Source: Fimbriimonadales bacterium (lineage in GTDB: Bacteria > Armatimonadota > Fimbriimonadia > Fimbriimonadales > GBS-DC). Taken from it: DNA of 64,000 bases. Positions 1,338 to 61,034 of the stretch are shown here, piece after piece. The notes beneath the pieces are model-generated. The model was given only the letters and a program-made list of their open reading frames with translations. It had not been told where the DNA came from and did not search any database. The position numbers and the translations under genes are program-made. The stretch covers positions 78,104-142,103 of the forward strand of contig JANXAW010000023.1 in NCBI GenBank assembly GCA_025061985.1, written 5' to 3'. Every line of letters begins with the position of its first letter. Position 1 is the first letter of the stretch.

Positions 1338-1655
1338 TCAGTAGTCCTCTGGCATTGCCCCGCGTCGTCCAAAGCCTCCGCCCCCACCAGGCGGGGCAGC
1401 AGGAGCCATGGCAGCAGGCCCGCCGGGCGGTCCACCAAATCCGCCTACCGTTGGGATGGCACCAGAGCTCGTAGCCGCCGACGTGGCTGCCGCGAGAGGG
1501 TCTTCAATCTTACGCTCTAGGCCAGCGAGGTCAGGCATTTGGGGCGCTGGTAAGGGTTGGGGCATCATGTTATTGCTTAGCACCACCAGTACAACCAACA
1601 GCACCACGCCCAATGCGATCACGCCAATTCCGATGGGGTCTACACCCTTGCGCAT
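1338..1655 (-). CDS. Small single-pass membrane protein with a Gly/Pro/Phe-rich tail (hypothetical)
   Basis: ATG at 1655 lies 6 nt downstream of an AGGAGG site. The N-terminal TM helix is IGIGVIALGVVLLVVLVVL. The tail reads ...PTVGGFGGPPGGPAAMAPAAPPGGGGGFGRRG.... Confidence 0.5.
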   Translation of the reverse strand: MRKGVDPIGIGVIALGVVLLVVLVVLSNNMMPQPLPAPQMPDLAGLERKIEDPLAAATSAATSSGAIPTVGGFGGPPGGPAAMAPAAPPGGGGGFGRRGAMPEDY

Positions 1656-4964: not shown

Positions 4965-5032
4965 CCGAGCTGTGTAGCGCACGTTCGTGGCATGGCGTAC
5001 AATTCCTACCCAGATTAGGTACACTTGGGAGC

Positions 5033-6340
5033 ATGAGGCGCGCGGTTTTGGGGTGGTTGGCGAGTGTTGCGTTTGTCGGCAGCACCCTCGCAACAGCAGA
5101 GACGCCTACCTTGTGGGGCATTCCGATTGGTGAGTATGCCCAGCGTCGCGCACAGCTGCGCAAACTACTAGAGCCTGACCAGATAGCCATCCTTGCCAGC
5201 GAGAGTAGCCCGCCCACACGCCTGAAATTCCGCCAAGACAGCAACTTTATGTATCTCACGGGGCTGGAAGCCATCAACGGAGTGCTGGTGATTTTGCCCA
5301 AAGACAGCCCATTAGAGGAGAGCGAGGTTCTGTTTTTGCCGCGTCAGTCACGCCTTTCGCGCTTATTTGAGGGACCTCTGCCCGAGCCGAACGCCCAAAC
5401 CCGTCGCGAGTCGGGCATAGAAGACATTCGCGAGCGCAGCGAGTTGCGCGAGTTCCTAGCCCAAGCGCTCAAGGTACACCCGCGCGCTTTGCTCAACCGC
5501 CCTGCACGCACCTTGCTAACCGATACCCTACGTGAAGCGAACCCTGAAGTGCAACTAAGCAGTGTGGATCGCTTGATGGCGCGTCTGCGCGTGATCAAAT
5601 CGCCAGCAGAAATCGCCCTTATGCGCAAAGCGATTGAAGCCACTATTGCAGGGCATCGCGCCCTAGCGCAACGACTAAAGCCCGGCGTATACGAGTACGA
5701 GCTGGAGGGCGCTGCGCAAGACGCCTTCCGCCGCCACGGCTCTGAACGCGAAGGCTACCCGATGATCATCGCCTCTGGACCCAACGCCTGCATCCTCCAC
5801 TACCACGCCAACAAGCGCCGAGTCAACGCGGGCGAACTGGTGCTGGTGGATATCGGCGCAGAGTACTCATACTACACTGCCGACATTACGCGCACCTATC
5901 CTGCTTCAGGCAAGTTCACCCCACGCCAGCGCGAACTCTACCGCGCCGTGCTGGACGCACTCAAGTACGCCGAGTCGGAAGCAAAGCCCGGCATCACACT
6001 GGCGCAGCTCCACCAGAAGGTGGTCGCCTTCTTCCGTAATCATCCCTTGCGCGCTCGCGACGAGAACGGGGAACTCAAAACCCTTGACCACTTCTTCGTG
6101 CATGGGCTGTCGCACATGCTGGGCATGGATGTACACGACTTAGACCCGAACCTGCCCCTCGCCCCGGGAATGGTGTTTACCATCGAGCCTGGGCTGTACG
6201 TCCCCGCAGAGGGCATCGGTATCCGCATCGAAGATAACTACTTGGTAACCGAAAAGGGCGTGGAGAACCTTAGTCGTGCGTTGCCACGCGAGCCTGAAGC
6301 CATTGAGCGTATGGTGGGCGCTGGCAAATCCCAACGTTGA
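5033..6340 (+). CDS. pepP: Xaa-Pro aminopeptidase (M24B), secreted
   Basis: An N-terminal signal-like segment is present. M24 metal-ligand blocks are VLVDIGAEYSYYTADITRT, HGLSHMLGMDVHD and FTIEPGLY. Confidence 0.85.
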   Translation: MRRAVLGWLASVAFVGSTLATAETPTLWGIPIGEYAQRRAQLRKLLEPDQIAILASESSPPTRLKFRQDSNFMYLTGLEAINGVLVILPKDSPLEESEVLFLPRQSRLSRLFEGPLPEPNAQTRRESGIEDIRERSELREFLAQALKVHPRALLNRPARTLLTDTLREANPEVQLSSVDRLMARLRVIKSPAEIALMRKAIEATIAGHRALAQRLKPGVYEYELEGAAQDAFRRHGSEREGYPMIIASGPNACILHYHANKRRVNAGELVLVDIGAEYSYYTADITRTYPASGKFTPRQRELYRAVLDALKYAESEAKPGITLAQLHQKVVAFFRNHPLRARDENGELKTLDHFFVHGLSHMLGMDVHDLDPNLPLAPGMVFTIEPGLYVPAEGIGIRIEDNYLVTEKGVENLSRALPREPEAIERMVGAGKSQR

Positions 6341-46040: not shown

Positions 46041-46973
46041 TCAGCGTTTGAGGATTCGCCGTGCGCCTACATAGCGTTTTTTGTAGTAGCCTGAGTTGAG
46101 CGTGTCGATACGCACGCGTCCCCGCGCGCTAGAAGCGTGAATGAACTTGCCGTCGCCAATGTAGATGCCCACATGCGAGACGCTGCGCCCCCGCGTGCGG
46201 AAAAACACCAGATCGCCCGGTCGAAGCTCGTGGCGTGCTACGGGCACGCCCACGCGGAACTGCGCGCGTGAGCTATGAGGCAACACGATGCCGTGTTTAC
46301 GAAACACATGCATTGTGAACCCCGAGCAGTCAAACCCACGCGCACTGCTCCCGCCATAGCGATAGCGGCTGCCCAAGTACGCCAGCGCGCTCCGAACCGC
46401 TTCGGGCAACCCGCGTGACTTAAGCGCGGCTAGCGTTTGCAGACGCGACGGCTTTCGAGAAACGCGCTTTAGGGAAACGCGGCTTGACTTCGCTACTTGC
46501 TTCTCTCGCGGAGGTTTGGTAGGGCTTAGATACTCGCTTTTGATCCAACCCGCACGCCCATTCGGCAGCTGTACGCGACTCCATTCGCCCTGTCGTGCCA
46601 AGATGCGCACCTTCGTCCAGCGGTCCACAAGGGTGATGCGTGCAGCACTAAGGCGGGGGGCAACGCGCACGTTCACACGATCCCGATTAAGCACTGCCCA
46701 GCCCGATGCAGAGGCGTTCGAGCGAATAGAAGAGCGACCCTGGAGCGAAGCGCGCTTTAGGGGGATTTTGATTTTGTCGCCAATCTGAAGCGCGTGCGGA
46801 TTGCGCAGTTTGTTCACGCGCAGCAGGTCTGGTACACGCAAGCCGTGCCTACGTGCTATCGTGGACAGCGAGTCACCTTTCTTGACAGTGTAAGTGATAG
46901 TTTGCTGCGCCGAGGCTGCAACCATCAGGCTCACGAGCGGGGCCATCCAGCCCCAGCGTTTGAGTGTGTGCAT
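46041..46973 (-). CDS. Peptidoglycan endopeptidase, LysM-SH3-NlpC/P60
   Basis: Signal peptide, LysM (YTVKKGDSLSTIARRHG...), SH3b-like segment, and an NlpC/P60 catalytic core (FDCSGFTMHVF...SHVGIYIGDGKFIHA). Confidence 0.85.
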   Translation of the reverse strand: MHTLKRWGWMAPLVSLMVAASAQQTITYTVKKGDSLSTIARRHGLRVPDLLRVNKLRNPHALQIGDKIKIPLKRASLQGRSSIRSNASASGWAVLNRDRVNVRVAPRLSAARITLVDRWTKVRILARQGEWSRVQLPNGRAGWIKSEYLSPTKPPREKQVAKSSRVSLKRVSRKPSRLQTLAALKSRGLPEAVRSALAYLGSRYRYGGSSARGFDCSGFTMHVFRKHGIVLPHSSRAQFRVGVPVARHELRPGDLVFFRTRGRSVSHVGIYIGDGKFIHASSARGRVRIDTLNSGYYKKRYVGARRILKR

Positions 46974-47302: not shown

Positions 47303-47689
47303 ATGGAGACACAACTCAGTTCAGCGGAAACGACTACCTCTATGCAGGCAGAGGGGCAAACTATCGGGGGCTTTGTGGCGATCAACTACATCACCTGTGC
47401 TCCTGAATATCGTGAGCGGTTTGAGTACCTCTTTAGAACGCGAGCGCACGCGATTGATCGCATGCCGGGCTTTCGTGGGATGTATGTGCTGCGCCCCCAG
47501 CGTGAAGGCGACCCTTACTTGGTAGTTAGCCATTGGGAAAGCGAAGCGCACTTTCGCGCTTGGCTTCAATCGCCTGAGTTCCTGGAAGGGCACAAGCGTG
47601 GCTTTGAAGACTTGCGCGCTGCAAAAGCTCGTGGGGAACAGCCACCGATGCACTCGGACTTTCGCACCTACGAGGTCATTGCCCGCTAA
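47303..47689 (+). CDS. Antibiotic-biosynthesis-monooxygenase (ABM/IsdG-like) domain protein
   Basis: FVAINYITCAPEYRERFEYLF..RAHAIDRMPGFRGMYVLRP......YLVVSHWESEAHFRAW. A GGAGG RBS lies upstream. Confidence 0.75.
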   Translation: METQLSSAETTTSMQAEGQTIGGFVAINYITCAPEYRERFEYLFRTRAHAIDRMPGFRGMYVLRPQREGDPYLVVSHWESEAHFRAWLQSPEFLEGHKRGFEDLRAAKARGEQPPMHSDFRTYEVIAR

Positions 47690-47801: not shown

Positions 47802-47839
47802 GTCGCTTGCCTTGTCGAACACACGATCGGGAGACTGGG

Positions 47840-49126
47840 ATGGCGAAGCAACCAAGCGTTGTTGTAGGGATTGACTTGGGCAGCCGCCTGATGAAGGTGG
47901 CAGAGGTGCGCACGGGGCGTCCACCGACAGTGACCAATATCGGCATTGCACCCACCCCAGAGGGCGCAATTGACAGCTCAGGCATTGTCGACAAAGCAGC
48001 GGTTGCTGCAGCGCTCAAGCGACTACTTGCCGATTCGGGAATCAGCACGAAATACGCCGCGTTTGCCTTGGCAGGGCAAAACTCGGTCGTCGTGCGCGTG
48101 CTGGAAGTCCCCAAAATGAGCCCCGCAGAGTTGCGCCAGCACATGGAGTGGGAGATCGGGCGCAACATCCCCTTCGCAGATACCAACGTGCAGTCCGCAT
48201 ACGAGGTCATCCGTCGCCCAGACGCCGATCCAAACGCGGATAATATGGAAGTCGTGCTGGCGGTGGCCCCAGCGGAGGCAGTTGACAGCTTAGTTGAAAT
48301 CGCAGATGGGCTGAAGCTGGAGCCTTACGCAATCGATGTGGAGCCGCTAGCGCTGGCACGGAGCTTACTGCTGACCCAACCTGACACGAGTGCAAAAAGT
48401 GTCGCGATTGTTAATCTGGGCGCAGAGTCGACCTCGATAGACATCTACACGCATGGGTTGCTTAGCTTTCCCCGCGTCTTGCCGATTGGGGGCAACGCGC
48501 TCACGCGAGCGATTGCAGACCGCTTGATGATTAGCGAGGCTGAAGCGGAGCAATTGAAAGCGCAGCTAGCAGAAGTGCTGATGGATCAGATTCCCCAAGT
48601 CACCTCGCCATTTAGTGTGCCAACAGGCGGTTTTTACACGCCAGGGTTCGGAGGCATCCCTACTGTTGGCAGCGAACCTTCTCCATTTATGACCCCTGGC
48701 TCCCTAACGGGCGGCTATGAGCCAGGGGCGCCTGAGGAGACGGAGCCTTCCTTCGAGGGGCCTCGCGAGCCAAGTGCTGAAGCGACGCTCCCTGCCCAGT
48801 CGCCCATAGATCCCCAAAAGCGCGAGGTGTTTTTGGCAATCTACCCATTGTTGGAGGAGCTAGCAACCGAAATCCGCCGCTCTGTGGAATACTTCCGCAG
48901 TCGCTACGCCAATGCAGACATCCATCAAATCATCCTGTGTGGCGGTGGTGCAGCACTCCCCAACCTCGACCAGTACATCAATGCTGCAACGGGCATACCT
49001 ACCGTTATCGGCAACCCCTTCAAAGGGGTTCAGCTAAGCGTCAAGCGCCACGGGCCTGACTATGTGGCTGCTCATGCCCACCTTATGGCGGTCGCTGTTG
49101 GAATGGGGCTGCACGCCAGCTTTTGA
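47840..49126 (+). CDS. pilM: Type IV pilus assembly ATPase-fold protein PilM, with a low-complexity insertion
   Basis: Actin-like N-terminus VVGIDLGSRLMKVAEV, ...VNLGAESTSIDIY..., C-terminus IILCGGGAALPNLDQYI. It has an insertion of about 75 aa rich in P/G/F/E (48587-48820). Confidence 0.85.
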   Translation: MAKQPSVVVGIDLGSRLMKVAEVRTGRPPTVTNIGIAPTPEGAIDSSGIVDKAAVAAALKRLLADSGISTKYAAFALAGQNSVVVRVLEVPKMSPAELRQHMEWEIGRNIPFADTNVQSAYEVIRRPDADPNADNMEVVLAVAPAEAVDSLVEIADGLKLEPYAIDVEPLALARSLLLTQPDTSAKSVAIVNLGAESTSIDIYTHGLLSFPRVLPIGGNALTRAIADRLMISEAEAEQLKAQLAEVLMDQIPQVTSPFSVPTGGFYTPGFGGIPTVGSEPSPFMTPGSLTGGYEPGAPEETEPSFEGPREPSAEATLPAQSPIDPQKREVFLAIYPLLEELATEIRRSVEYFRSRYANADIHQIILCGGGAALPNLDQYINAATGIPTVIGNPFKGVQLSVKRHGPDYVAAHAHLMAVAVGMGLHASF

Positions 49127-49141
49127 CGGAGGCGAACAGCG

Positions 49142-50038
49142 ATGAAACTAAACCTGGTGCCTGATTATGTACGTCAGCGCAAGGTCAGCAAGCGAGTAGT
49201 AGCAATGCTGACCCTGCTGTTTATAGCGGTAAACGCCCTTATGGTATTCTGGTTGGTTAGCGTGCAAGCACAACTAGCTGCTCTGCAGCAACGCAAAAGC
49301 GAGCTGGAACTGCAAGCGCAACAGGTCGATAACTTCTACAATCAGGCAAACCAGATGATCGACTCTGCAGCGTTGCTGTTGGGGCTAGTGGAGTGGGCTA
49401 AGCGCGTGCAGCAGCACAACTTGCGGTATCCTGAGCTTTACAGTCAGGTAAGTCAGTACACTTCGCCGCGCGTGCGTTACGCGTCGATGCAGGTGGTTCA
49501 GGGCAACCAGCTTCAGCTCGCAGGGTTTACACGCAGCATTCGGGATCTGGGGCTATTTTTGCAAGCGATGTATCAGTGCCCGTTGTTCACGGCAGTAAGT
49601 TTGACCTCGGCTTCGTTGCCGGGCTATTCGACTGGGGGCACGCAGCAAGGCGTTGCGTTCGGTTTTGGGACACCGGGAGGAAGCGCGCCTGCTACCCCTG
49701 CAGCACCTGTTGCTGCAGGCGTTGTTGGGGCTAGCGTAGGCGGTGCACCACCCGCGCCTTCCGCTCCATCAGCGCCTCCCGCATTCGGGGTACCCGGAGG
49801 AGGTTTTGGCGCGGGGTTCACCGGCAGGGGTACTCAAGCGATGAGTTCGCCCGCAAATCTAATGCCATTCCAAGTCGTCGCCTATCTGAAGGAGCCGATT
49901 ACTCTCCCCGTGCCGCCTGCCAATGTTCCAGGGTTGAATCTAGGTAGCGGGAGCGGCTTCGGCATGTCTATTGGAGGCTTTGGCGGCACAGCTCCGATGG
50001 CTCCTCCAGGCGGAGGCTTCACACCACCAGGCATGTAA
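49142..50038 (+). CDS. pilN: PilN-like pilus assembly protein with a long Gly/Pro/Phe-rich C-terminal region
   Basis: N-terminus MKLNLVPDYVRQRK, then a TM helix, coiled coil and ferredoxin-like core. It sits immediately after pilM. The C-terminal ~135 aa are low complexity. Confidence 0.7.
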   Translation: MKLNLVPDYVRQRKVSKRVVAMLTLLFIAVNALMVFWLVSVQAQLAALQQRKSELELQAQQVDNFYNQANQMIDSAALLLGLVEWAKRVQQHNLRYPELYSQVSQYTSPRVRYASMQVVQGNQLQLAGFTRSIRDLGLFLQAMYQCPLFTAVSLTSASLPGYSTGGTQQGVAFGFGTPGGSAPATPAAPVAAGVVGASVGGAPPAPSAPSAPPAFGVPGGGFGAGFTGRGTQAMSSPANLMPFQVVAYLKEPITLPVPPANVPGLNLGSGSGFGMSIGGFGGTAPMAPPGGGFTPPGM

Positions 50039-50052
50039 AAGGAGCGGACGCT

Positions 50053-50781
50053 ATGAAAAAAGGCTTGTCGATGTTCGCGAAAGTTTCGATTGGGCTAACG
50101 CTCACGATTGTGGTGGCAGCAGCGATTTTCCTGCTGGGCATCCGTCCCACTTTGCAAAACATTGCATACCATGAGGAAAACATTCGACAACTCGAAGCGA
50201 AGGTAGCGCAAATCCCCACTGCGCAACGCTTGGTGCAGCGGGCACAGGAGCGCGTTCGGCAGGCGGAACGCGATCTGGCGCATATTCAGCGCACCAAAAT
50301 GCCTAAAAACACTATTGATGTAAGCGACCGCCTCAAGGCGTGGATGCAGTATCCCGATATGGTGCGGGAGATTGGCATAAAGCTGCGAGTGTGGCCCGAG
50401 CGCACGGGCGTGCAACGCCTCTATGAGGTCAATCTCCCACCCCCACCAAACGACCCGAACGCCATCCCCACGGTGGTGTTGGTATTCCCGATTGGGCAGG
50501 TGCAAGTGCGCGCTCCCTCGTTCCAAGCGCTGCTGAACCATGTGCGCAAGTGGAACGAAGTGCCCAACCTCTTAGTGCTGGTAGATGGGCTGGCTATTCA
50601 GGGAATGAGCCCGGAGTTGTACGGGAGCTACACACTGACTGTGTTTGTGTATCCGCGTGTCTCGGGTGGTCAAGTAGGTCCGAATGTCCCATCATCTCCT
50701 CAGCAAGCGACGGGCGCAACCCCCGCCCCTGGAGGCTTTGGGATGATAGGAGGCGGCGCCTTTGGAGGACCTGACATGTGA
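50053..50781 (+). CDS. pilO: PilO-like pilus assembly protein with a Gly-rich tail
   Basis: Assigned on position and topology (TM helix, coiled coil, globular domain). The tail is ...PAPGGFGMIGGGAFGGPDM. Confidence 0.6.
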   Translation: MKKGLSMFAKVSIGLTLTIVVAAAIFLLGIRPTLQNIAYHEENIRQLEAKVAQIPTAQRLVQRAQERVRQAERDLAHIQRTKMPKNTIDVSDRLKAWMQYPDMVREIGIKLRVWPERTGVQRLYEVNLPPPPNDPNAIPTVVLVFPIGQVQVRAPSFQALLNHVRKWNEVPNLLVLVDGLAIQGMSPELYGSYTLTVFVYPRVSGGQVGPNVPSSPQQATGATPAPGGFGMIGGGAFGGPDM

Positions 50782-50833
50782 AATACCAGCAGGAATCGTG
50801 GGGTAAATCGTCGAACACGGCGGGTGAGCAGCG

Positions 50834-51550
50834 ATGACGAAACAGACACAGATTGCGTTGGCTGTTGCGGTGGTGGTGCTGGTAGTGATTGCGGTGGCAC
50901 TGCTACTTGTGTTCACGGGTGGCGGTGATGTAGACACTGCGACTCAACCACCTTCTGTAAGCGACGATCGAATGGGCATTCCGCCGACGCCTCCTGCGCC
51001 GACGGGGGGGATATCGCCTCCGCCTGCGGCGGCGCCACCGGCTGCGCGAACGGCGCGCCCGCCTTTTACCCCACGTCGAGATCCGTTTGCACCCTTGCCT
51101 GAAGAGCTAGCAGCGATGCAGGCGGAAGCATTTGATCCCTCGCGCTATTTTGTGCTCGCCAGCCCACCTAAACCGCCGCGCGTTGAATTGCCCGAGCCCT
51201 ACGAACCGCAGCCTCGACGACGCGTAGCCGGGGTAATCATCGGTAACACTGTTTCGGCTATCTTAGAACAGGAAGGGGAAGTGCCTCGCATTGTCTACCC
51301 CGGCGACATGGTGGGCGAGTTTCGCGTGGTGTCGATCACGGCAGATGGCATCCTTCTGCGTCGCCCGAAAGGTAACCCACGCGAGGTCCGTGTGCCTCTT
51401 GAACCGCCCAGTGCCTCCACAGGGGGTGCTGCCCCTGGTGTAGGGGTAGGCGCACCAGGCGCACCGGGCGTCCCAGGCGCTCCCGGCGGTTTGCCTCAGC
51501 GAGGCGGTGTAGGTACGCCAGGAGGACGCGGTGGCGGAGTAGAGTTTTAG
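50834..51550 (+). CDS. pilP: PilP-like pilus assembly protein with Pro-rich linker and Gly-rich tail
   Basis: TM anchor, RRDPFAPLP motif, and a beta-domain VAGVIIGNTVSAILEQEGEVPRIVYPGDMVGEFRVVSI. The tail is ...GGLPQRGGVGTPGGRGGGVEF. Confidence 0.55.
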   Translation: MTKQTQIALAVAVVVLVVIAVALLLVFTGGGDVDTATQPPSVSDDRMGIPPTPPAPTGGISPPPAAAPPAARTARPPFTPRRDPFAPLPEELAAMQAEAFDPSRYFVLASPPKPPRVELPEPYEPQPRRRVAGVIIGNTVSAILEQEGEVPRIVYPGDMVGEFRVVSITADGILLRRPKGNPREVRVPLEPPSASTGGAAPGVGVGAPGAPGVPGAPGGLPQRGGVGTPGGRGGGVEF

Positions 51551-51595
51551 AAACGCGCTCGGTTGCTGTGCGTAATCTTATATGGAGGATGAAAG

Positions 51596-52381
51596 ATGAT
51601 GCGAGCGAAACTGATGTGGTTGATAGCAGTGGCGATGCTAATGCAGGTGGCGCCACTCAGTGCGCAAGACGGCGGCCAGCAAGACCCCACTCAAAAGCGC
51701 GTAACGCTTAAGTACGAAGATGCTGATGTGCGCTTTGTGCTAAAGCAACTGTTTGAGAGCGTGGGCTTGAACTATGTGCTTGACCCGAACGTACAAGGTA
51801 CCGTGCGGGTCTCGCTGACCGACGTGCCGTTTACCGTAGCACTTGAAAGCATCTTGCGCCCGTTGAACCTTACCTACCGCGTGGAAAATGGGGTGTACTA
51901 TATCACGGTGCGCCAGCCTGAGGAGGTGCGCGTGCCAGAGGAAGCTCCCGCTCCTACCGAGGAGGGGCCTCGTTTGAACCTGCCGGAGAAGATTCAGCTC
52001 AACTATGCCAATCCGTTGCTGATTGCCAGCCTTTTAGGAGGCACAGTGATTGGGTACGCCCAGTATGAGCTGCAAGGTGGGGTCGGCCTTGGTGGCTTTG
52101 GTGGTTTTGGTGGCTTTGGTGGCTTCGGCTCTGGCTTTGGCGGCTTTGGCGGTTTTGGCGGCTTTGGCGGCTTAGGTGGCTTTGGTGGCTTCGGCTCTGG
52201 CTTTGGCGGCTTTGGCGGCTTTGGCGGCTTTGGCGGTTTTGGCGGCTTTGGCGGCGGCTTTGGAGGCGGTGGCTTTGGCGGAGGCTTCCGCGGTGGCGGC
52301 GGCTTTGGCGGAGGCTTCCGCGGTGGCGGCGGCTTTGGCGGTGGGGGCGGCTTTGGCGGCGGAGGAGGGTTTGGACGCTAA
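51596..52381 (+). CDS. Secreted secretin-N0-domain protein fused to a ~100-aa GGFG repeat tail (truncated PilQ-N paralog)
   Basis: GGAGG RBS and signal peptide. The N0-like domain VTLKYEDADVRFVLKQLFESVGLNYVLDPNVQGTVRVSL...YRVENGVYYIT is followed by a linker and an N1-start-like segment (IQLNYANPLLIASLL). Residues 161-261 consist only of G, F and a few S, L, V and R. Confidence 0.65.
   Translation: MMRAKLMWLIAVAMLMQVAPLSAQDGGQQDPTQKRVTLKYEDADVRFVLKQLFESVGLNYVLDPNVQGTVRVSLTDVPFTVALESILRPLNLTYRVENGVYYITVRQPEEVRVPEEAPAPTEEGPRLNLPEKIQLNYANPLLIASLLGGTVIGYAQYELQGGVGLGGFGGFGGFGGFGSGFGGFGGFGGFGGLGGFGGFGSGFGGFGGFGGFGGFGGFGGGFGGGGFGGGFRGGGGFGGGFRGGGGFGGGGGFGGGGGFGR
52076..52378 (+). repeat. Coding tandem repeat (9-nt GGC-TTT-GGY unit with higher-order 66-nt and 30-nt duplications)
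   Basis: Identical 44-mers at 52108-52151 and 52174-52217. A perfect 30-nt tandem duplication lies at 52271-52300 / 52301-52330. Confidence 0.9.
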
Positions 52382-52434
52382 CCGCCCCTACCCACAACTT
52401 TGACAGCACAACTTCATGGAGGAGGAACCACCCG

Positions 52435-54045
52435 ATGCGGAAAGGAAGAGGAAGTGTGTTGTTTGCTGCCCTGCTGGCAGGAGCTTTGTTTCTAACCAGC
52501 TGGGGCAACGAAGATTACTTGGTCAGCATCGATCTCGTGGACGCCGACTTCATTACCGCAGTAAAGGGCATCGCGCTTCAGGCAAAGGTGGAGGTTGTTT
52601 TTGAGCCGACTGACGAGCCCTACCGGCGCATTAGCTTCATCAGCATTCGCGAAAGACCCTTCGAGCAGGTGTTGCGCTATTTGTGTCAGTCAGCGGGGGC
52701 AACTTTCCGCAAGGAAAACGGCGTGTATGTCATCAGCCCCCTTCGGGCTGCTAAGCCCACCGAAACTCCTCCGGCAGCGGCACCTACTCCGCCCGAGCGA
52801 CAGCGCCCCACGATTGTGGTAGAGTCAATCCCGCTCCGCTACAGTCGTGCGTCGGACATCGTGCGGATTATCAAAACGGAGATGCTGACCGACGACCCGT
52901 TCGCCGAGATTCGCGACTTCGTGAACCACACCATCCAGCAAACTGCGCCGGGGATGCAGGTTCGCGTACCCCCCAGCGTGCCCTTGCGCGTGGACGGCAA
53001 TCCAGCCATCCCATATAACAATGCACCTGTGCCCACCCCCACGACGCCCGCATCTCAGGAGTTTGGCGAGGGGCAACGCGGTGGCCGTGGCTTTGGGGGG
53101 CAGTTTGGCTTCGGCGGGCAGCCCCCAGGGGGCGGCATCGGCGGGCAATTCGGCGGCGGACAACCCGGAGGGGTTGGTCAACCAGGTGCACAAGCAGCTG
53201 GTATCCTCATCCCTGAGGGGCTGGATGGCATCGTTGCCAATGACATCGATAACTCGTTGATTGTGCGTGGCACGCCCGAAGCCGTAGAGTATATTCGCCG
53301 AATCTTGCGCTTCTTGGACATCGCTCCCAAGCAGGTGCTTATCCGCGCAGAGTTCATCACAGTCAGTCGCAAAGACACTGAAAAGTTCGGTATCAACTGG
53401 AGCCTTTCGCGCGTGCACCTGCAAGCGGGGGCGGACCGTCAGGCAGACCTTAGCGCGCCCATCTTCGTCAACTACGCCACAGGCAACTTGGTGACGAACC
53501 TTCGAGCGCAACTGGAGCAGAGCCGTGGGCGCGTGGTCAATGCCCCCGTCGTCGTTACTCAGAACAACAGCCCAGCCGTCGTTGCTTTCGTAACCACAGA
53601 CTACATTGAGCAGCAGGTAGTCGTGTTCGACCAAACAGGGCGCCCAACCACCTTCTCCCAGCCTGTGCCCATTCCTATCCCCACCCAGCTGACAGTGATT
53701 CCGCGCGTGAACGCCGACGGCACAATTACGCTTACTTTGTTCCCGCAGATCTCCACAGCGGGGCGTGTGCGCGTCGGTGCGCGCGACCTACCCCGCTTTG
53801 AGAGCCAGTTCGTGTTCACCGTACGCCGTATCCGCAGCGGAGAAACGATGGTGCTGGGTGGGCTAATCACGCGCAGCGACAACAACGTGGTTACAAAAGT
53901 CCCGCTCCTAAGCGACTTGCCCGTGATTGGGCAATTCTTCCGTGCACGCACCCGCGAAGTCACGGAGTCTGAACTCCTGATCTTCGTGACGGCGACCGTG
54001 CTGGAAGAAGACGAGAGCGCGGGACGCGGTACGCTATCTCCGTAA
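52435..54045 (+). CDS. pilQ: Type IV pilus secretin PilQ with a Gly-rich insertion in the N1 domain
   Basis: GGAGGAGG RBS, N0-like domain, and N1 split by the insertion GQRGGRGFGGQFGFGGQPPGGGIGGQFGGGQPGG (53065-53187). The C-terminal secretin core ends ...VTKVPLLSDLPVIGQFFR. Confidence 0.85.
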   Translation: MRKGRGSVLFAALLAGALFLTSWGNEDYLVSIDLVDADFITAVKGIALQAKVEVVFEPTDEPYRRISFISIRERPFEQVLRYLCQSAGATFRKENGVYVISPLRAAKPTETPPAAAPTPPERQRPTIVVESIPLRYSRASDIVRIIKTEMLTDDPFAEIRDFVNHTIQQTAPGMQVRVPPSVPLRVDGNPAIPYNNAPVPTPTTPASQEFGEGQRGGRGFGGQFGFGGQPPGGGIGGQFGGGQPGGVGQPGAQAAGILIPEGLDGIVANDIDNSLIVRGTPEAVEYIRRILRFLDIAPKQVLIRAEFITVSRKDTEKFGINWSLSRVHLQAGADRQADLSAPIFVNYATGNLVTNLRAQLEQSRGRVVNAPVVVTQNNSPAVVAFVTTDYIEQQVVVFDQTGRPTTFSQPVPIPIPTQLTVIPRVNADGTITLTLFPQISTAGRVRVGARDLPRFESQFVFTVRRIRSGETMVLGGLITRSDNNVVTKVPLLSDLPVIGQFFRARTREVTESELLIFVTATVLEEDESAGRGTLSP

Positions 54046-54072: not shown

Positions 54073-54107
54073 CTGCAGGGGCAGTATGCCCCTGCAGCTT
54101 AATTTTG
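54073..54107 (+). terminator. Intrinsic terminator after pilQ
   Basis: CTGCAGGGGC-AGTAT-GCCCCTGCAG is followed by CTTAATTTTG, immediately upstream of the aroKB RBS and ATG. Confidence 0.6.
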
Positions 54108-54116
54108 TTGAAGGGC

Positions 54117-55742
54117 ATGAGGCACCTGTACTTAGTGGGAAACATGGGCAGCGGTAAGTCCACTGTGGCTGCGTGTGTGGCTCAGCGTCTGGGGATGCCG
54201 TTTGTGGACCTTGACGTCTGTATTGAGCAAGCAGCGGGAATGTCCGTAAGCGCCCTTTTTGAGCGGGAAGGGGAGCCTGCCTTCCGTCAGCGTGAACAGG
54301 CAATGCTGCGTGCAGTCGCTGAAATGCCTCCGCAGGTAGTGGCTACAGGGGGCGGTGTGGTGCTAAGCGAGGCAAACTGGCAACTGATGCGCCAAACGGG
54401 CTGGATTGTGTATCTGCAGGCGTCGGTAAAGACGCTATGGCAGCGCGTGCGCCGCAGTCGGCATCGCCCACTTTTGCGCACAGCAACGCCGCGCGCCACG
54501 CTGGAGGCGATTGTGCGCGCTCGCGAACCCCTTTACCAACAAGCTGACTGGATTGTGCCCACTGACGGGCGCACCCCTGAGCAGGTAGCTGAGGCAGTGC
54601 AGCGCGCTTTCCGCCCCACGGCAGAGCTACCCCTTGCGATAGAGGTCTTGCCACAGCATTCAGAGGGCTATGAAGTGCTAATTGCGCCCCAACTTGCTAC
54701 CCGAGTCGCTACCTATCTGCAGGCACGACTTCACCCTACGCGCGTCGCGTTGCTTACCCATCCGCGTTTGCTGCAGTGGGCAACACCAATTCGCGACGCG
54801 CTGGAAGCCATAGGCGTTTCTACTCACCTTATCACAGTGCCCACGGGTGAGCGCATCAAAACGTTGCGCACTGCGGAACGGCTCTATGCGCAGCTGTTAG
54901 CAGCGGGCGTGGACCGCAGCGGCGCGTTGCTGATTGTTGGCGGAGGCGTGCTGGGCGATTTAGGAGGGTTTGTCGCCGCTACCTACATGCGCGGTATTCC
55001 ATATGTGCAAGTGCCTACCACGTTGCTGGCGCAGGTTGACTCCAGTGTCGGGGGCAAGGTAGCGGTCGACTTACCTCAAGGCAAAAACTTGGTGGGCGCG
55101 TTTCACCAGCCTGCGCTGGTAGTGATTGACCCTGAAGTCTTGACAACGCTACCCTTGCGCCAGTGGCGCAACGGCTTCGCTGAGATGCTCAAGTACGGCA
55201 TCGTCTTGCACGCAGGGTTATGGCAACGCTTGCAAGTGATGCTCCAACAAGGTGTGTTCCGCCGTCGCACGCTCCGAGACAACCCGTATACTTGGACGCT
55301 TCCGATTGCCCAATGTGTGCGCCTCAAAGCTGCGATTGTCGCCGAAGATGAACGCGACCTTACAGGCAAGCGTGCCTTGCTCAACTTTGGGCACACCATC
55401 GGGCACGCGATAGAGGCAGTGCTAGGCTACCGCCATTGGCTACACGGAGAGGCGATCGCTGCTGGAATGGTTGCCGAGGCGGAGTTAGGGCGGATTGTGG
55501 GCGTTACGCCTGCGGAGGTAGTGGAGACCTTGCGCGAGACGCTTACCCAGGCGGGCTTACCCACAAGCCTACCCCGTAACCTCTCGCCCGAGGCGTTGCT
55601 GGAAGCAACCCGCTATGACAAAAAGCGCGCGGGCGATACACCGCGCATCGTGCTCTTAGAGGGGATAGGCAAAGCGCGCTTGGAGCCGAAAATTCCACCC
55701 AGTGCCCTCAAGGAGGCGCTTTCGCGATGCATGCCGTCTTAG
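54117..55742 (+). CDS. aroKB: Bifunctional shikimate kinase / 3-dehydroquinate synthase (AroK-AroB fusion)
   Basis: N-terminal P-loop kinase LVGNMGSGKST...ATGGGVV. The C-terminal DHQS has GGGVLGDLGGFVAATYMRGIPYVQVPTTLLAQVDSSVGGKVAV and NFGHTIGHAIE. It is a single uninterrupted frame. Confidence 0.9.
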   Translation: MRHLYLVGNMGSGKSTVAACVAQRLGMPFVDLDVCIEQAAGMSVSALFEREGEPAFRQREQAMLRAVAEMPPQVVATGGGVVLSEANWQLMRQTGWIVYLQASVKTLWQRVRRSRHRPLLRTATPRATLEAIVRAREPLYQQADWIVPTDGRTPEQVAEAVQRAFRPTAELPLAIEVLPQHSEGYEVLIAPQLATRVATYLQARLHPTRVALLTHPRLLQWATPIRDALEAIGVSTHLITVPTGERIKTLRTAERLYAQLLAAGVDRSGALLIVGGGVLGDLGGFVAATYMRGIPYVQVPTTLLAQVDSSVGGKVAVDLPQGKNLVGAFHQPALVVIDPEVLTTLPLRQWRNGFAEMLKYGIVLHAGLWQRLQVMLQQGVFRRRTLRDNPYTWTLPIAQCVRLKAAIVAEDERDLTGKRALLNFGHTIGHAIEAVLGYRHWLHGEAIAAGMVAEAELGRIVGVTPAEVVETLRETLTQAGLPTSLPRNLSPEALLEATRYDKKRAGDTPRIVLLEGIGKARLEPKIPPSALKEALSRCMPS

Positions 55743-59636: not shown

Positions 59637-61034
59637 ATGCGCAGGGAAGAACTAGACCAGCTTCGGCTCGGAGAGGACATAGACGTAGCGCAGTTGCGCC
59701 GTGCGTGGCGTAATGTGGTGCAGGCGTTGCTTCCGCGCGTGGCCGCTTCCAGCCGGCGGTACTTGGAAGCGATCACGCCTGTGGGGATTGAGGGCGACTG
59801 CGTGCAGCTACGGTTAGATAACGCTTTCGGGCGCGATTGGGTGCGGCAGCGCTACCTGCGCGAGCTGCAGACCCTCTTAAGTCAACAGTTAGGCTTCCCT
59901 GTGGTAGTGCAGCTGGTTGGTGAGGATTCGCCTGCGCCCGTACCGGAGCCGGTAGTGGTTGCCGCTCCTGCTCCGAGCCAGCCAGCGTTTCCTCCGCCAC
60001 GCCTCAACCCACACTACACCTTCGAGACCTTCGTGGTGGGCAGGAGCAACCGCCTCGCGCATGCAGCGGCATGGGCTGTTGCCAATGGCGCAAGCGCCCG
60101 CTACAATCCGCTTTTTATCTACAGCCCCCCTGGCCTAGGCAAAACCCACCTGCTGCATGCTATCGGGCATGCGTGCCTAAGACGGATGCCCAATGCTCGC
60201 ATCCTCTACATCAGCGGTGAGGAGTTCGTAAATAGCTACGTACAGGCGGTGCGTCAGCAGAAAGTCGATGAGTTCCGCGAGCGCTACCGAAATGTGCAGT
60301 ACTGGCTGGTGGACGATGTGCAGTTTGTAGCAGGCAAAGAGCGCACTCAGGAGGAGTTTTTCCATATTTTCAACATGCTCTATAACGCAGGGAAGCAGCT
60401 GGTGATGACCAGCGACAAGGCGCCGCGGGAACTGGTGGGGGTGGAGGAGCGATTGCGCACGCGCTTTGAGATGGGGCTATGTGCGGATATTGCCCCGCCT
60501 GACTTTGAAACGCGCTTGGCGATCTTGCTTAGCAAGGCGGAACGCGAGGGAATTGCCCTCCCGCTTGCTGTGGCAGAGCTTATTGCGGACAAGATTCAGT
60601 CAAACATACGTGTGCTGGAGGGGGTTTTGACGCGCCTAATCGCGCAAAGCTCCATCCTAGGTGAGCCGATCACTGTGGAGCTGGCTGCGGAGGCGTTGCG
60701 AGCCTATCTGGTGGAAGCGCAGCCTAAGGCGCCTTCGCTAGAGCAAATCGTGCAGTTAGTGTGCGAGGAGATGGGCATCTCGCGTGAGGAGCTTACAGGC
60801 AGCAGTCGGCGCGGCGAAGTAGTGCAGGCACGCCAAGTGGCTGTGTTCTTGGCACGCGAAACCACGGGCGAGCCGTGGGCGCGTATTGCGGAAGCGTTGG
60901 GACGCGCCGACCACACGACCGTGCTCCACGCCTACCGCCAGCTACAGCAGCGCCTGCGTCGCGATCCTATCTTGCGCGAGCGGATCCAACGCCTGCGCCA
61001 CCGAGTGGCAGGGAGCGCTACCGTGCGCGCGTGA
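59637..61034 (+). CDS. dnaA: Chromosomal replication initiator protein DnaA
   Basis: Walker A GLGKTHLLHAIG, Walker B WLVDDVQF, sensor motifs, and the C-terminal DNA-binding helix RQVAVFLARE...DHTTVLHA. Confidence 0.95.
   Translation: MRREELDQLRLGEDIDVAQLRRAWRNVVQALLPRVAASSRRYLEAITPVGIEGDCVQLRLDNAFGRDWVRQRYLRELQTLLSQQLGFPVVVQLVGEDSPAPVPEPVVVAAPAPSQPAFPPPRLNPHYTFETFVVGRSNRLAHAAAWAVANGASARYNPLFIYSPPGLGKTHLLHAIGHACLRRMPNARILYISGEEFVNSYVQAVRQQKVDEFRERYRNVQYWLVDDVQFVAGKERTQEEFFHIFNMLYNAGKQLVMTSDKAPRELVGVEERLRTRFEMGLCADIAPPDFETRLAILLSKAEREGIALPLAVAELIADKIQSNIRVLEGVLTRLIAQSSILGEPITVELAAEALRAYLVEAQPKAPSLEQIVQLVCEEMGISREELTGSSRRGEVVQARQVAVFLARETTGEPWARIAEALGRADHTTVLHAYRQLQQRLRRDPILRERIQRLRHRVAGSATVRA

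Follow-up and report, generated by a model that had tools for sequence, protein, structure and literature searches.

Glycine-rich, partly Gly/Phe-periodic segments on the periplasmic subunits of a type IV pilus operon from a thermophilic Fimbriimonadales bacterium

Within a stretch of 64,000 nucleotides from a Fimbriimonadales (Armatimonadota) bacterium (contig JANXAW010000023.1 of assembly GCA_025061985.1, positions 78,104 to 142,103), referred to here as the window, we have identified a six-gene locus: an operon for the alignment complex and the secretin of a type IVa pilus, to which a stand-alone protein of the secretin N0 domain is added. This extra protein, called N0GF here, ends in a glycine/phenylalanine-rich (G/F) tail, and it shares with the other four periplasmic subunits the possession of glycine-rich segments. 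These tracts are periplasm-specific, almost uncharged, predicted to be disordered and, at five fixed sites within a single machine, conserved in their grammar. The source bacterium is thermophilic; close relatives of the pil locus come mostly from hot-spring metagenome-assembled genomes (MAGs), and a PilQ identical to that of the window is present in GCA_033581495.1 and in a Fimbriimonadales MAG.

The pil operon and its glycine-rich segments

The open reading frames (ORFs) of the operon follow each other in one direction, separated by 15, 14, 52, 45 and 53 nucleotides (nt) in order:

47840-49126 (+), pilM, actin-like cytoplasmic ATPase-fold protein (Pfam PilM_2, E 3.2e-48, 164.8 bits)
49142-50038 (+), pilN, bitopic inner-membrane protein (Pfam PilN, E 4.5e-4; gene position, topology)
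50053-50781 (+), PilO/GspM-like bitopic protein (T2SSM matches of orthologues; a transmembrane (TM) helix and a coiled coil visible in the sequence)
50834-51550 (+), PilP-like protein, TM-anchored, with a Pro-rich linker and an HR-type beta domain (orthologue profile against the PDB)
51596-52381 (+), N0GF, in which a signal peptide and N0 (nt 51692-51913) precede a beta1-alpha1-like piece at nt 51971-52042 and the tail
52435-54045 (+), pilQ secretin, whose signal peptide is followed by N0 (nt 52519-52740), one ring-forming N domain at nt 52816-53316 and, at nt 53332-54003, the secretin domain
54073-54097 (+), terminator-like hairpin of 11 pairs, 8 of them G-C, between pilQ and aroK-aroB (consensus scan only)

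The hairpin is likely the end of the operon, and 3' of it lies an aroK-aroB fusion (54105-55742), identified via a copy of the locus with SKI and DHQ_synthase domains. A promoter scan upstream of pilM gave nothing convincing. An original prediction, made from the letters of the sequence, had described six co-directional pil genes with gaps of 14-53 nt and an extra N0 protein, and such an operon is supported here.

The identity of the single subunits could be established to different degrees. PilM belongs to its family, with 200.4 bits against TIGR01175 (cut-off 133), and has an alternative TTG start at 47807. The Pfam match of PilN (20.7 bits) stays under the cut-off of 22.8, and its N-terminus, as read from the sequence, presents an LNLVP motif followed by a TM helix. 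The PilO-like protein has no Pfam match of its own; T2SSM is matched by 13 of its 17 orthologues (best E 5.2e-4), and a comparison of its sequence profile with the PDB gave no match. For the fourth protein we keep the name PilP-like, taken from the weak match of its orthologue profile to the PilP structure 4av2_M (E 0.0032), which was followed by 2ivw (0.0063). Pfam PilP was matched by only 1 of 17 orthologues (E 0.17), and the protein, which has no Cys lipobox, is TM-anchored and not a lipoprotein. PilQ is a member of the secretin superfamily (Pfam Secretin, 9e-33, 113.7 bits against a cut-off of 27.5), with a Secretin_N match (7e-8, 33 bits) split around an insertion, and its AlphaFold2 (AF2) model had V. 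cholerae PilQ 6w6m as best match in Foldseek (7.6e-23). At the subfamily level, 152.9 bits were obtained with TIGR02515, below its cut-off of 284.35, and nearly the same (152.3 bits) with the GspD model, neither cut-off being reached; its assignment as PilQ rests on operon context.

The low-complexity segments of the six proteins are located as follows (positions in amino acids, aa; pLDDT, predicted local distance difference test):

48599-48817 (+), PilM insertion, aa 254-326: P 21%, G 15%, T, S and E 11% each, 10 charged residues, one GFGG
49616-49858 (+), PilN low-complexity insertion, aa 159-239 (81 aa): G 25%, A 20%, P 16%, FG motifs present
49916-50035 (+), PilN C-terminal low-complexity tail, aa 259-298 (40 aa), coming after the conserved strand SPANLMPFQVVAYLKEPI
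50662-50778 (+), PilO-like C-terminal G/P/A/F tail, aa 204-242, by composition; orthologue tracts are typically (GGGF)n
51401-51547 (+), PilP-like C-terminal G/P/A tail, aa 190-238, with no GFG motif in this genome
52076-52378 (+), N0GF tail, aa 161-261: G 68%, F 24%, 3 Arg, ending GFGR
52888-53220 (+), PilQ 111-aa insertion, placed after helix alpha1 and before strand beta2 in the ring N domain; AF2 pLDDT below 50 over aa 151-262

All the low-complexity strings quoted in the original prediction are present verbatim in the translations, and its statement that every subunit carries a GGFG-type segment holds for the five periplasmic proteins in so far as they are Gly-rich. It does not extend to PilM, whose P/T/S/E insertion is cytoplasmic and outside the conserved G/F feature, and 30 of 31 PilM orthologues have no tract. 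Likewise, a Gly/Phe-rich composition built on GGFG/GFGG describes the N0GF tail and the PilQ loop, but not PilN, PilO and PilP, which are mostly G/P/A (G 25-37% with P and A, sparse F), PilP having no GFG at all. What had been taken as a PilN C-terminal region of about 135 aa consists of three parts, with the conserved strand SPANLMPFQVVAYLKEPI standing between the insertion and the tail. The N0GF tail of about 100 aa, described as almost pure G/F, comes close to that and includes three Arg. In Chthonomonadales, Met replaces Phe in the PilN, PilO and PilP tails. The C-termini of PilN, PilO and PilP orthologues (L002-L044) are often alike (GGRGIGI, GPGI, GGRGGRAPDI) and the N0 proteins end GFGR; judged from the sequences, these shared short motifs could be docking or processing signals.

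The PilQ insertion, which the original prediction had put in the N1 domain, lies in the ring-forming N domain of the AF2 model. In this model N0 occupies aa 29-102 and the secretin domain aa 300-523, and between them lies the ring domain with beta1 (128-133), alpha1 (139-150), beta2 (263-269), beta3 (274-279) and alpha2 (281-294). As modelled, the tract enlarges the variable alpha1-beta2 loop of the N domain that forms a ring under the secretin barrel. Its (FGGQPGG)-like core (nt 53068-53187) contains G 52%, Q 15%, F 10% and P 10%. A tract is found at the same loop site in 100 of 120 PilQ homologues, and the homologue comparison revealed no Gly-rich tract at this site in secretins outside the phylum. 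In addition, a Chthonomonadaceae MAG encodes a 922-aa multi-N-domain secretin (L037:12427-16229, -) in which each N domain has G/M- or G/F-rich loops, next to a 298-aa secreted protein with (GGP)n/F-rich ends.

The second protein with a true G/F tract, N0GF, matches Pfam STN (1e-6) and the N-terminal part of TIGR02515 (7e-13). AF2 gave a pLDDT above 90 for its N0 domain (aa 33-106), whose nearest structure in Foldseek is the N0 of Neisseria PilQ (4ar0, 1.1e-6), and pLDDT of about 42-47 without secondary structure for the tail (46 sequences). Downstream of N0 come RLNLPEKIQLNYANPLLIASLLGG, the beta1-alpha1-like piece and then the tail. In some paralogues the G/F tract is followed by a beta2-beta3 sequence (PEG...V.D.DNS.IV) and a stop. 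Two loci (L014:13052-13822 and L023:1542-2330) have such a second short paralogue 3' of aroK-aroB, made of N0, beta1-alpha1, G/F tract and beta2-beta3, with no secretin domain downstream by tblastn. By this layout N0GF resembles a PilQ N-terminus truncated within the alpha1-beta2 loop. The N0 domains of N0GF and of the window PilQ are weakly similar to each other (28% identity, E 0.002).

Distribution and grammar of the tracts

The original prediction had proposed to look for such tracts in unrelated proteins, to follow them in orthologous operons and to run disorder prediction. Disorder is what AF2 predicts, by the values given above for the N0GF tail and for the loop of PilQ. For the other two, we located 43 related loci of Fimbriimonadales and Chthonomonadales, one genome per species, with a 6-sequence N0 alignment; their ORFs were called crudely and assigned by BLASTP, and any 25-aa segment containing no fewer than 10 Gly and no fewer than 2 F/W/Y counted as a tract. 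Tracts were present in PilN (19/23), PilO (16/22), PilP (15/26), the N0 protein (24/29) and PilQ (21/22), against 1/31 for PilM, 0/23 for AroKB and 4/408 for all other ORFs. The periplasmic Pil proteins together have a tract in 95 of 122 cases versus 4 of 408 other ORFs (Fisher's exact p ~3e-74, a value in which independence is overstated, as the loci are related). Two of the four exceptional ORFs adjoin secretin systems. In the window itself a comparable tract occurs in just 1 of the 52 other crudely called ORFs. A proteome-wide compositional bias was therefore rejected, the tracts being rare both in the ORFs of the window and in the 408 non-pil ORFs of the related loci. Moreover, orthologous operons in Fimbriimonadales and Chthonomonadales have kept the tracts, and the five sites are the same in lineages whose folded domains share only 25-45% identity.

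The only non-pil G/F tract of the window belongs to an unlinked protein, about 1 kb from a fragment of a PilT gene and without a Pfam match:

1338-1655 (-), 105-aa bitopic protein that has a single TM helix, its tail being GGFGGPPGG...GGGGGFGRRG

The N0GF family is large. We found 114 close homologues, and an exhaustive search of 1.84 billion sequences (50%-identity cluster representatives) gave 679 relatives at E<=1e-10. Among the best 143 new relatives, 106 are of 310 aa or less; 85 of these carry a Gly-rich/hydrophobic tract, which in 74 reaches the C-terminus. The dominant hydrophobic residue, or sticker, varies between F, L, Y, M and W in distant relatives, some of which have G/N/Q/S spacers. 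A few proteins matched N0GF via the tail only: these are lipoprotein-like proteins of Planctomycete (Gemmataceae) type (P0112, P0113, L076), whose N-terminal domain is unrelated and whose C-terminal G/F tail ends in FR, IR or VF.

The grammar of the tail was assessed on 97 N0GF homologues. Their tails have a length of 87+-13 aa (range 55-118) and consist of 67+-4% Gly and 19+-3% aromatics, with 0.8% acidic and 2.5% basic residues. The hydrophobic residues follow each other at a spacing of 3-5 in 89% of gaps, adjacent ones (gap 1) accounting for just 14 of about 1,970 gaps, and in 93% of the tails the stickers are more evenly spaced than in shuffled versions. The tail ends in FGR in 68 of the 97. 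Read from the sequences of hundreds of diverged homologues, composition, even sticker spacing and the terminal FGR are conserved, and sequence and length are not.

At the DNA level, the window tail is built of imperfect tandem repeats, with units of 9 and 66 nt that match at 82-89%; its first half follows an exact 3-residue (9-nt) period and its second half periods of 4-5. On the opposite strand this repeat casts a shadow, a 169-aa ORF with many RQS repeats (51999-52508, -), which is not a gene. About one third of the related contigs stop within some 250 nt past the N0 domain, which is inside the G/F repeat (L005, L007, L012, L017, L019-L021, L029, L031-L033, L042-L044), and the database proteins P0069 and P0198 are frameshifted translations of it. 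As the repeat breaks assemblies, the feature may have been hidden.

We also scanned metagenomes for DNA encoding GFGGFGGFGGFG; the matches listed are part of the total, and the counts are lower bounds. Among about 80 listed matches there are at least 21 DnaJ G/F regions, the others comprising glycoside-hydrolase linkers, TPM-domain and Ffh tails, a TonB-dependent-receptor-like protein, Planctomycete-type lipoproteins, eukaryotic proteins and at least 3 secretins. Two of the listed secretins are truly split GspD proteins of another lineage (L059:2045-4543 and L085:26-1689), with GspL/M-like genes upstream. In them an N-module protein (model positions 1-299) has a G/S-rich tail ending GGGGF (L059) or GGTQF (L085), and a second polypeptide begins with its own signal peptide, followed by GGGGFGGFGGFGGFGGGG and GspD positions 278-600. 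Thus G/F tracts at the boundary of the secretin N-module and C-module recur in another lineage, a sequence pattern that fits G/F tracts acting as connectors.

Comparison with known systems and possible roles

With the type IVa PilMNOPQ systems of Pseudomonas, Myxococcus, Neisseria, Vibrio and Thermus, the locus shares the order pilM-N-O-P-Q followed by aroK-aroB, a PilM inside its family and a PilQ with secretin and N0 domains. It departs from these machines by the extra N0 protein, by the Gly-rich disordered segments on all periplasmic parts, by PilO and PilP proteins that stay below their family thresholds, and by a PilQ that has only N0 and one ring domain, no AMIN domain having been found in the Pfam search. 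Stand-alone N0 proteins have a precedent in type IVb pili, where the small secreted N0-like proteins BfpG and TcpQ bind the secretin 1:1 (17:17) around the N3 ring (PMC12531336). N0GF is similarly a secreted stand-alone N0 domain with its gene directly upstream of pilQ, and its model gave a weak match to BfpG chain 9u5s_R (E 0.012). Unlike BfpG, it is nearer to a true PilQ/GspD N0 (4ar0 1e-6, ~30% identity), belongs to a type IVa operon and has a G/F tail of about 100 aa, which is absent from BfpG.

The PilQ tract sits at the site, between the barrel-adjacent ring domain's first helix and its second strand, that is taken by the InvG loop (residues 217-267) and by the Gly-rich loop of ExeD/GspD. 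The original prediction held that well-studied systems have no such segments; this stands for model secretins, the same site having ~15 aa in V. cholerae PilQ (6w6m alignment) versus ~111 in the window PilQ. In Aeromonas ExeD a short Gly-rich GG-GTATTAGGGASIGGG stretch is aligned to the insertion site. The window loop differs from both the InvG and ExeD loops in its length, in its (FGGQPGG)n core and in being conserved as such across a phylum-level group.

Gly/Phe-rich disordered regions are best known among bacteria from DnaJ (Hsp40), where the G/F region is cytoplasmic, lies beside the J domain, measures 30-70 aa and acts in the Hsp70 cycle. A DnaJ-type region was rejected here, as none of the six proteins shows a DnaJ domain in Pfam and the segments lie in the periplasm. 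As uncharged sticker-and-spacer low-complexity regions, the segments also recall, with no homology, FG nucleoporins, whose domains are grafted around a channel, as well as glycine-loop proteins, tick-cement proteins and abductin with its GGFGGMGGGX repeats. The likeness to FG-type regions drawn in the original prediction did not hold: with hydrophobics every 3-5 residues and ~67% Gly, as against an FG spacing of ~10-20, the class of FG nucleoporins was rejected, and we know of no transport receptors for pil G/F tails. Judged by composition, the segments resemble DnaJ G/F regions and glycine-loop/elastomer proteins more closely. Another relative in character is PilW of Thermus thermophilus, a Gly/Pro-rich flexible periplasmic connector in the pilus machine of a thermophile (PMC13039148); PilW is however a single linker protein with no periodic aromatics reported, whereas five proteins are tailed here and one of them is dedicated to its tail. 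We found no published description of G/F or glycine-rich tracts in type IV pilus or secretin proteins, in a literature mostly outside subscription journals, so that this absence is not proof. In short, the PilMNOPQ machine, the BfpG/TcpQ N0 precedent, the variable secretin loop and the DnaJ G/F regions are known parts, and what is apparently undescribed is their combination, with tails on all periplasmic parts, a large N0+tail family and conservation across a phylum-level group.

Perhaps the tethered sticker-and-spacer regions form a cohesive and elastic collar or mesh around the pilus conduit, a role which we prefer among the readings considered but put forward tentatively, as a possibility that falls somewhat short of an even chance. 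Assuming 12-15 copies of each part, about 5,000-6,300 tethered low-complexity residues would be gathered in the periplasmic cage, a rough crowding estimate of 70-350 mg/ml when copy numbers and cage geometry are assumed. These residues would associate via Phe/Met (and Arg) contacts, and the resulting collar would join PilNOP, the platform in the inner membrane, to the N rings of the secretin. It could fill or line the vestibule when there is no pilus and yield on the passage of the fibre, the gain being mechanical compliance and sealing and not selective transport. Such a function would be in keeping with the restriction of the tracts to the periplasm, their predicted disorder, the place of the loop in PilQ and the sticker-spacer grammar, in which the interval of 3-5 residues is marked by Phe in this genome and by Met, Tyr, Trp or Leu in related lineages. 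In ticks, the Gly-rich protein GRP77 with periodic F/Y/R phase-separates and gels (PMC11794139). The variable insertion of InvG was proposed to be a periplasmic constriction of the empty secretin that threads outward when the needle is present, and it is disordered in other secretins (PMC6155069).

Several points weigh against a cohesive mesh, and some of them favour instead its main rival, passive flexible spacers, in which the segments would be entropic linkers or bristles that bridge a periplasm of large or varying width and pass through the cell wall with no specific self-association, the hydrophobics tuning chain dimensions only. Cohesion is read from composition only, the PilQ loop and the tails could face the lumen or ring the outside, and part of the length may be neutral, as repeats evolve by slippage. 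The PilN, PilO and PilP tails, mainly G/P/A with just 2-7% F, would suit spacers better, and so would the loops of Fimbriimonadaceae-type PilQ, which are G/Q-rich and without aromatics at the same site; owing to them an aromatic-driven mesh cannot hold for the whole phylum. In fact, G/F tracts are not unique to pili and are plain flexible linkers in DnaJ, glycoside hydrolases and Ffh, and the Gly/Pro-rich Thermus PilW was read simply as a flexible linker, which adapts to platform movement across a 70-nm periplasm (PMC13039148). The disorder predicted by AF2 would equally be expected of spacers. Nevertheless we consider spacers somewhat unlikely, since, of the five segments, four end freely at the C-terminus or form a loop instead of linking two folded domains, and since spacers account neither for the 19+-3% of evenly placed aromatics, the near-zero charge, the F/Y/W/M/L swaps and the FGR end nor for a dedicated protein that is mostly tail.

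That FGR end, together with GGRGIGI, GPGI and GGRAPDI in the PilN, PilO and PilP orthologues, would be the point of contact if the segments were tethered docking arms, leashes whose C-terminal motifs (FGR in N0GF, RG.G[IL]-type in the others) bind a partner such as peptidoglycan, the outer membrane, the secretin or a PDZ-type protein. The recurrence of these ends speaks for it, but the motifs are short, the window's own proteins end PPGM, GPDM and GVEF, and 100 residues of G/F are not needed for docking; we regard this as improbable. An ordered glycine-rich structure, where (GGF)n forms polyglycine-II/collagen-like bundles or a cross-beta fibre and so makes a stiff strut or is set into membrane or wall, would explain the exact 3-residue period in the first half of the tail, and polyglycine-II bundles are known from the snow-flea antifreeze protein and phage adhesins. 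It is quite improbable in view of the low pLDDT and absent secondary structure of the AF2 tail, of the periods of 4-5 in its second half and of periods and spacers that vary among homologues. Very improbable, finally, is a near-neutral expansion of slippage-prone GGC-TTT repeats, tolerated at periplasmic termini and loops with no specific role. The matching tandem DNA repeats, the variable tail length and the contigs broken inside the repeat would suit it, but the same five sites are kept across lineages with strongly diverged folded domains, no tract occurs in AroKB, in 404 of 408 other ORFs or, with one exception among 31, in PilM, and the composition is narrowly constrained.

The cohesive collar can be extended to a wider proposal, in which a large unrecognised N0+tail family, with the PilN/PilO/PilP tails and the PilQ loop, builds a cohesive disordered phase in or around the periplasmic conduit and the same G/F "Velcro" joins split secretins elsewhere. 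We regard this wider form as unlikely.

Surroundings of the operon and significance

Further genes of the window lie around the operon or belong to pilus function:

46041-46973 (-), LysM + SH3 + NlpC/P60 cell-wall hydrolase gene, divergent, ~0.9 kb upstream of pilM
47303-47689 (+), ABM-domain monooxygenase gene, between the hydrolase gene and pilM
59637-61034 (+), dnaA, with DnaA_N, Bac_DnaA and Bac_DnaA_C matched on the identical contig copy L001
14-364 (+), PilT/PilU-type retraction ATPase, C-terminal 116 aa of a gene cut by the window edge (PDB 6ojx, E 1e-21)

The position of dnaA places the pil operon ~6 kb from the likely replication origin region, and the PilT/PilU fragment indicates a second pilus-related locus ~47 kb from pilMNOPQ.

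Secretin machines, such as those of type IV pili, type II and type III secretion and phage export, open a channel of 6-8 nm in the envelope. How the periplasmic side of such a machine is sealed, how it is aligned with the inner-membrane platform and how it remains mechanically robust under pilus force are only partly understood. The N0+tail family is large and resides in non-model, often thermophilic bacteria, and it was probably overlooked because assemblies break in the repeat and search filters drop low-complexity matches. A machine with tethered sticker-and-spacer regions on every periplasmic part and a dedicated N0+tail protein offers a natural test system for asking whether disordered cohesive phases exist in the bacterial periplasm, whether they act as seals or springs in envelope-spanning machines and what the role of the variable N3 loop is. 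If the tails are only spacers, they make a useful catalogue entry and no new principle. If the cohesive phase is true, prokaryotes would have in their periplasm a counterpart of grafted low-complexity barriers or elastomers.

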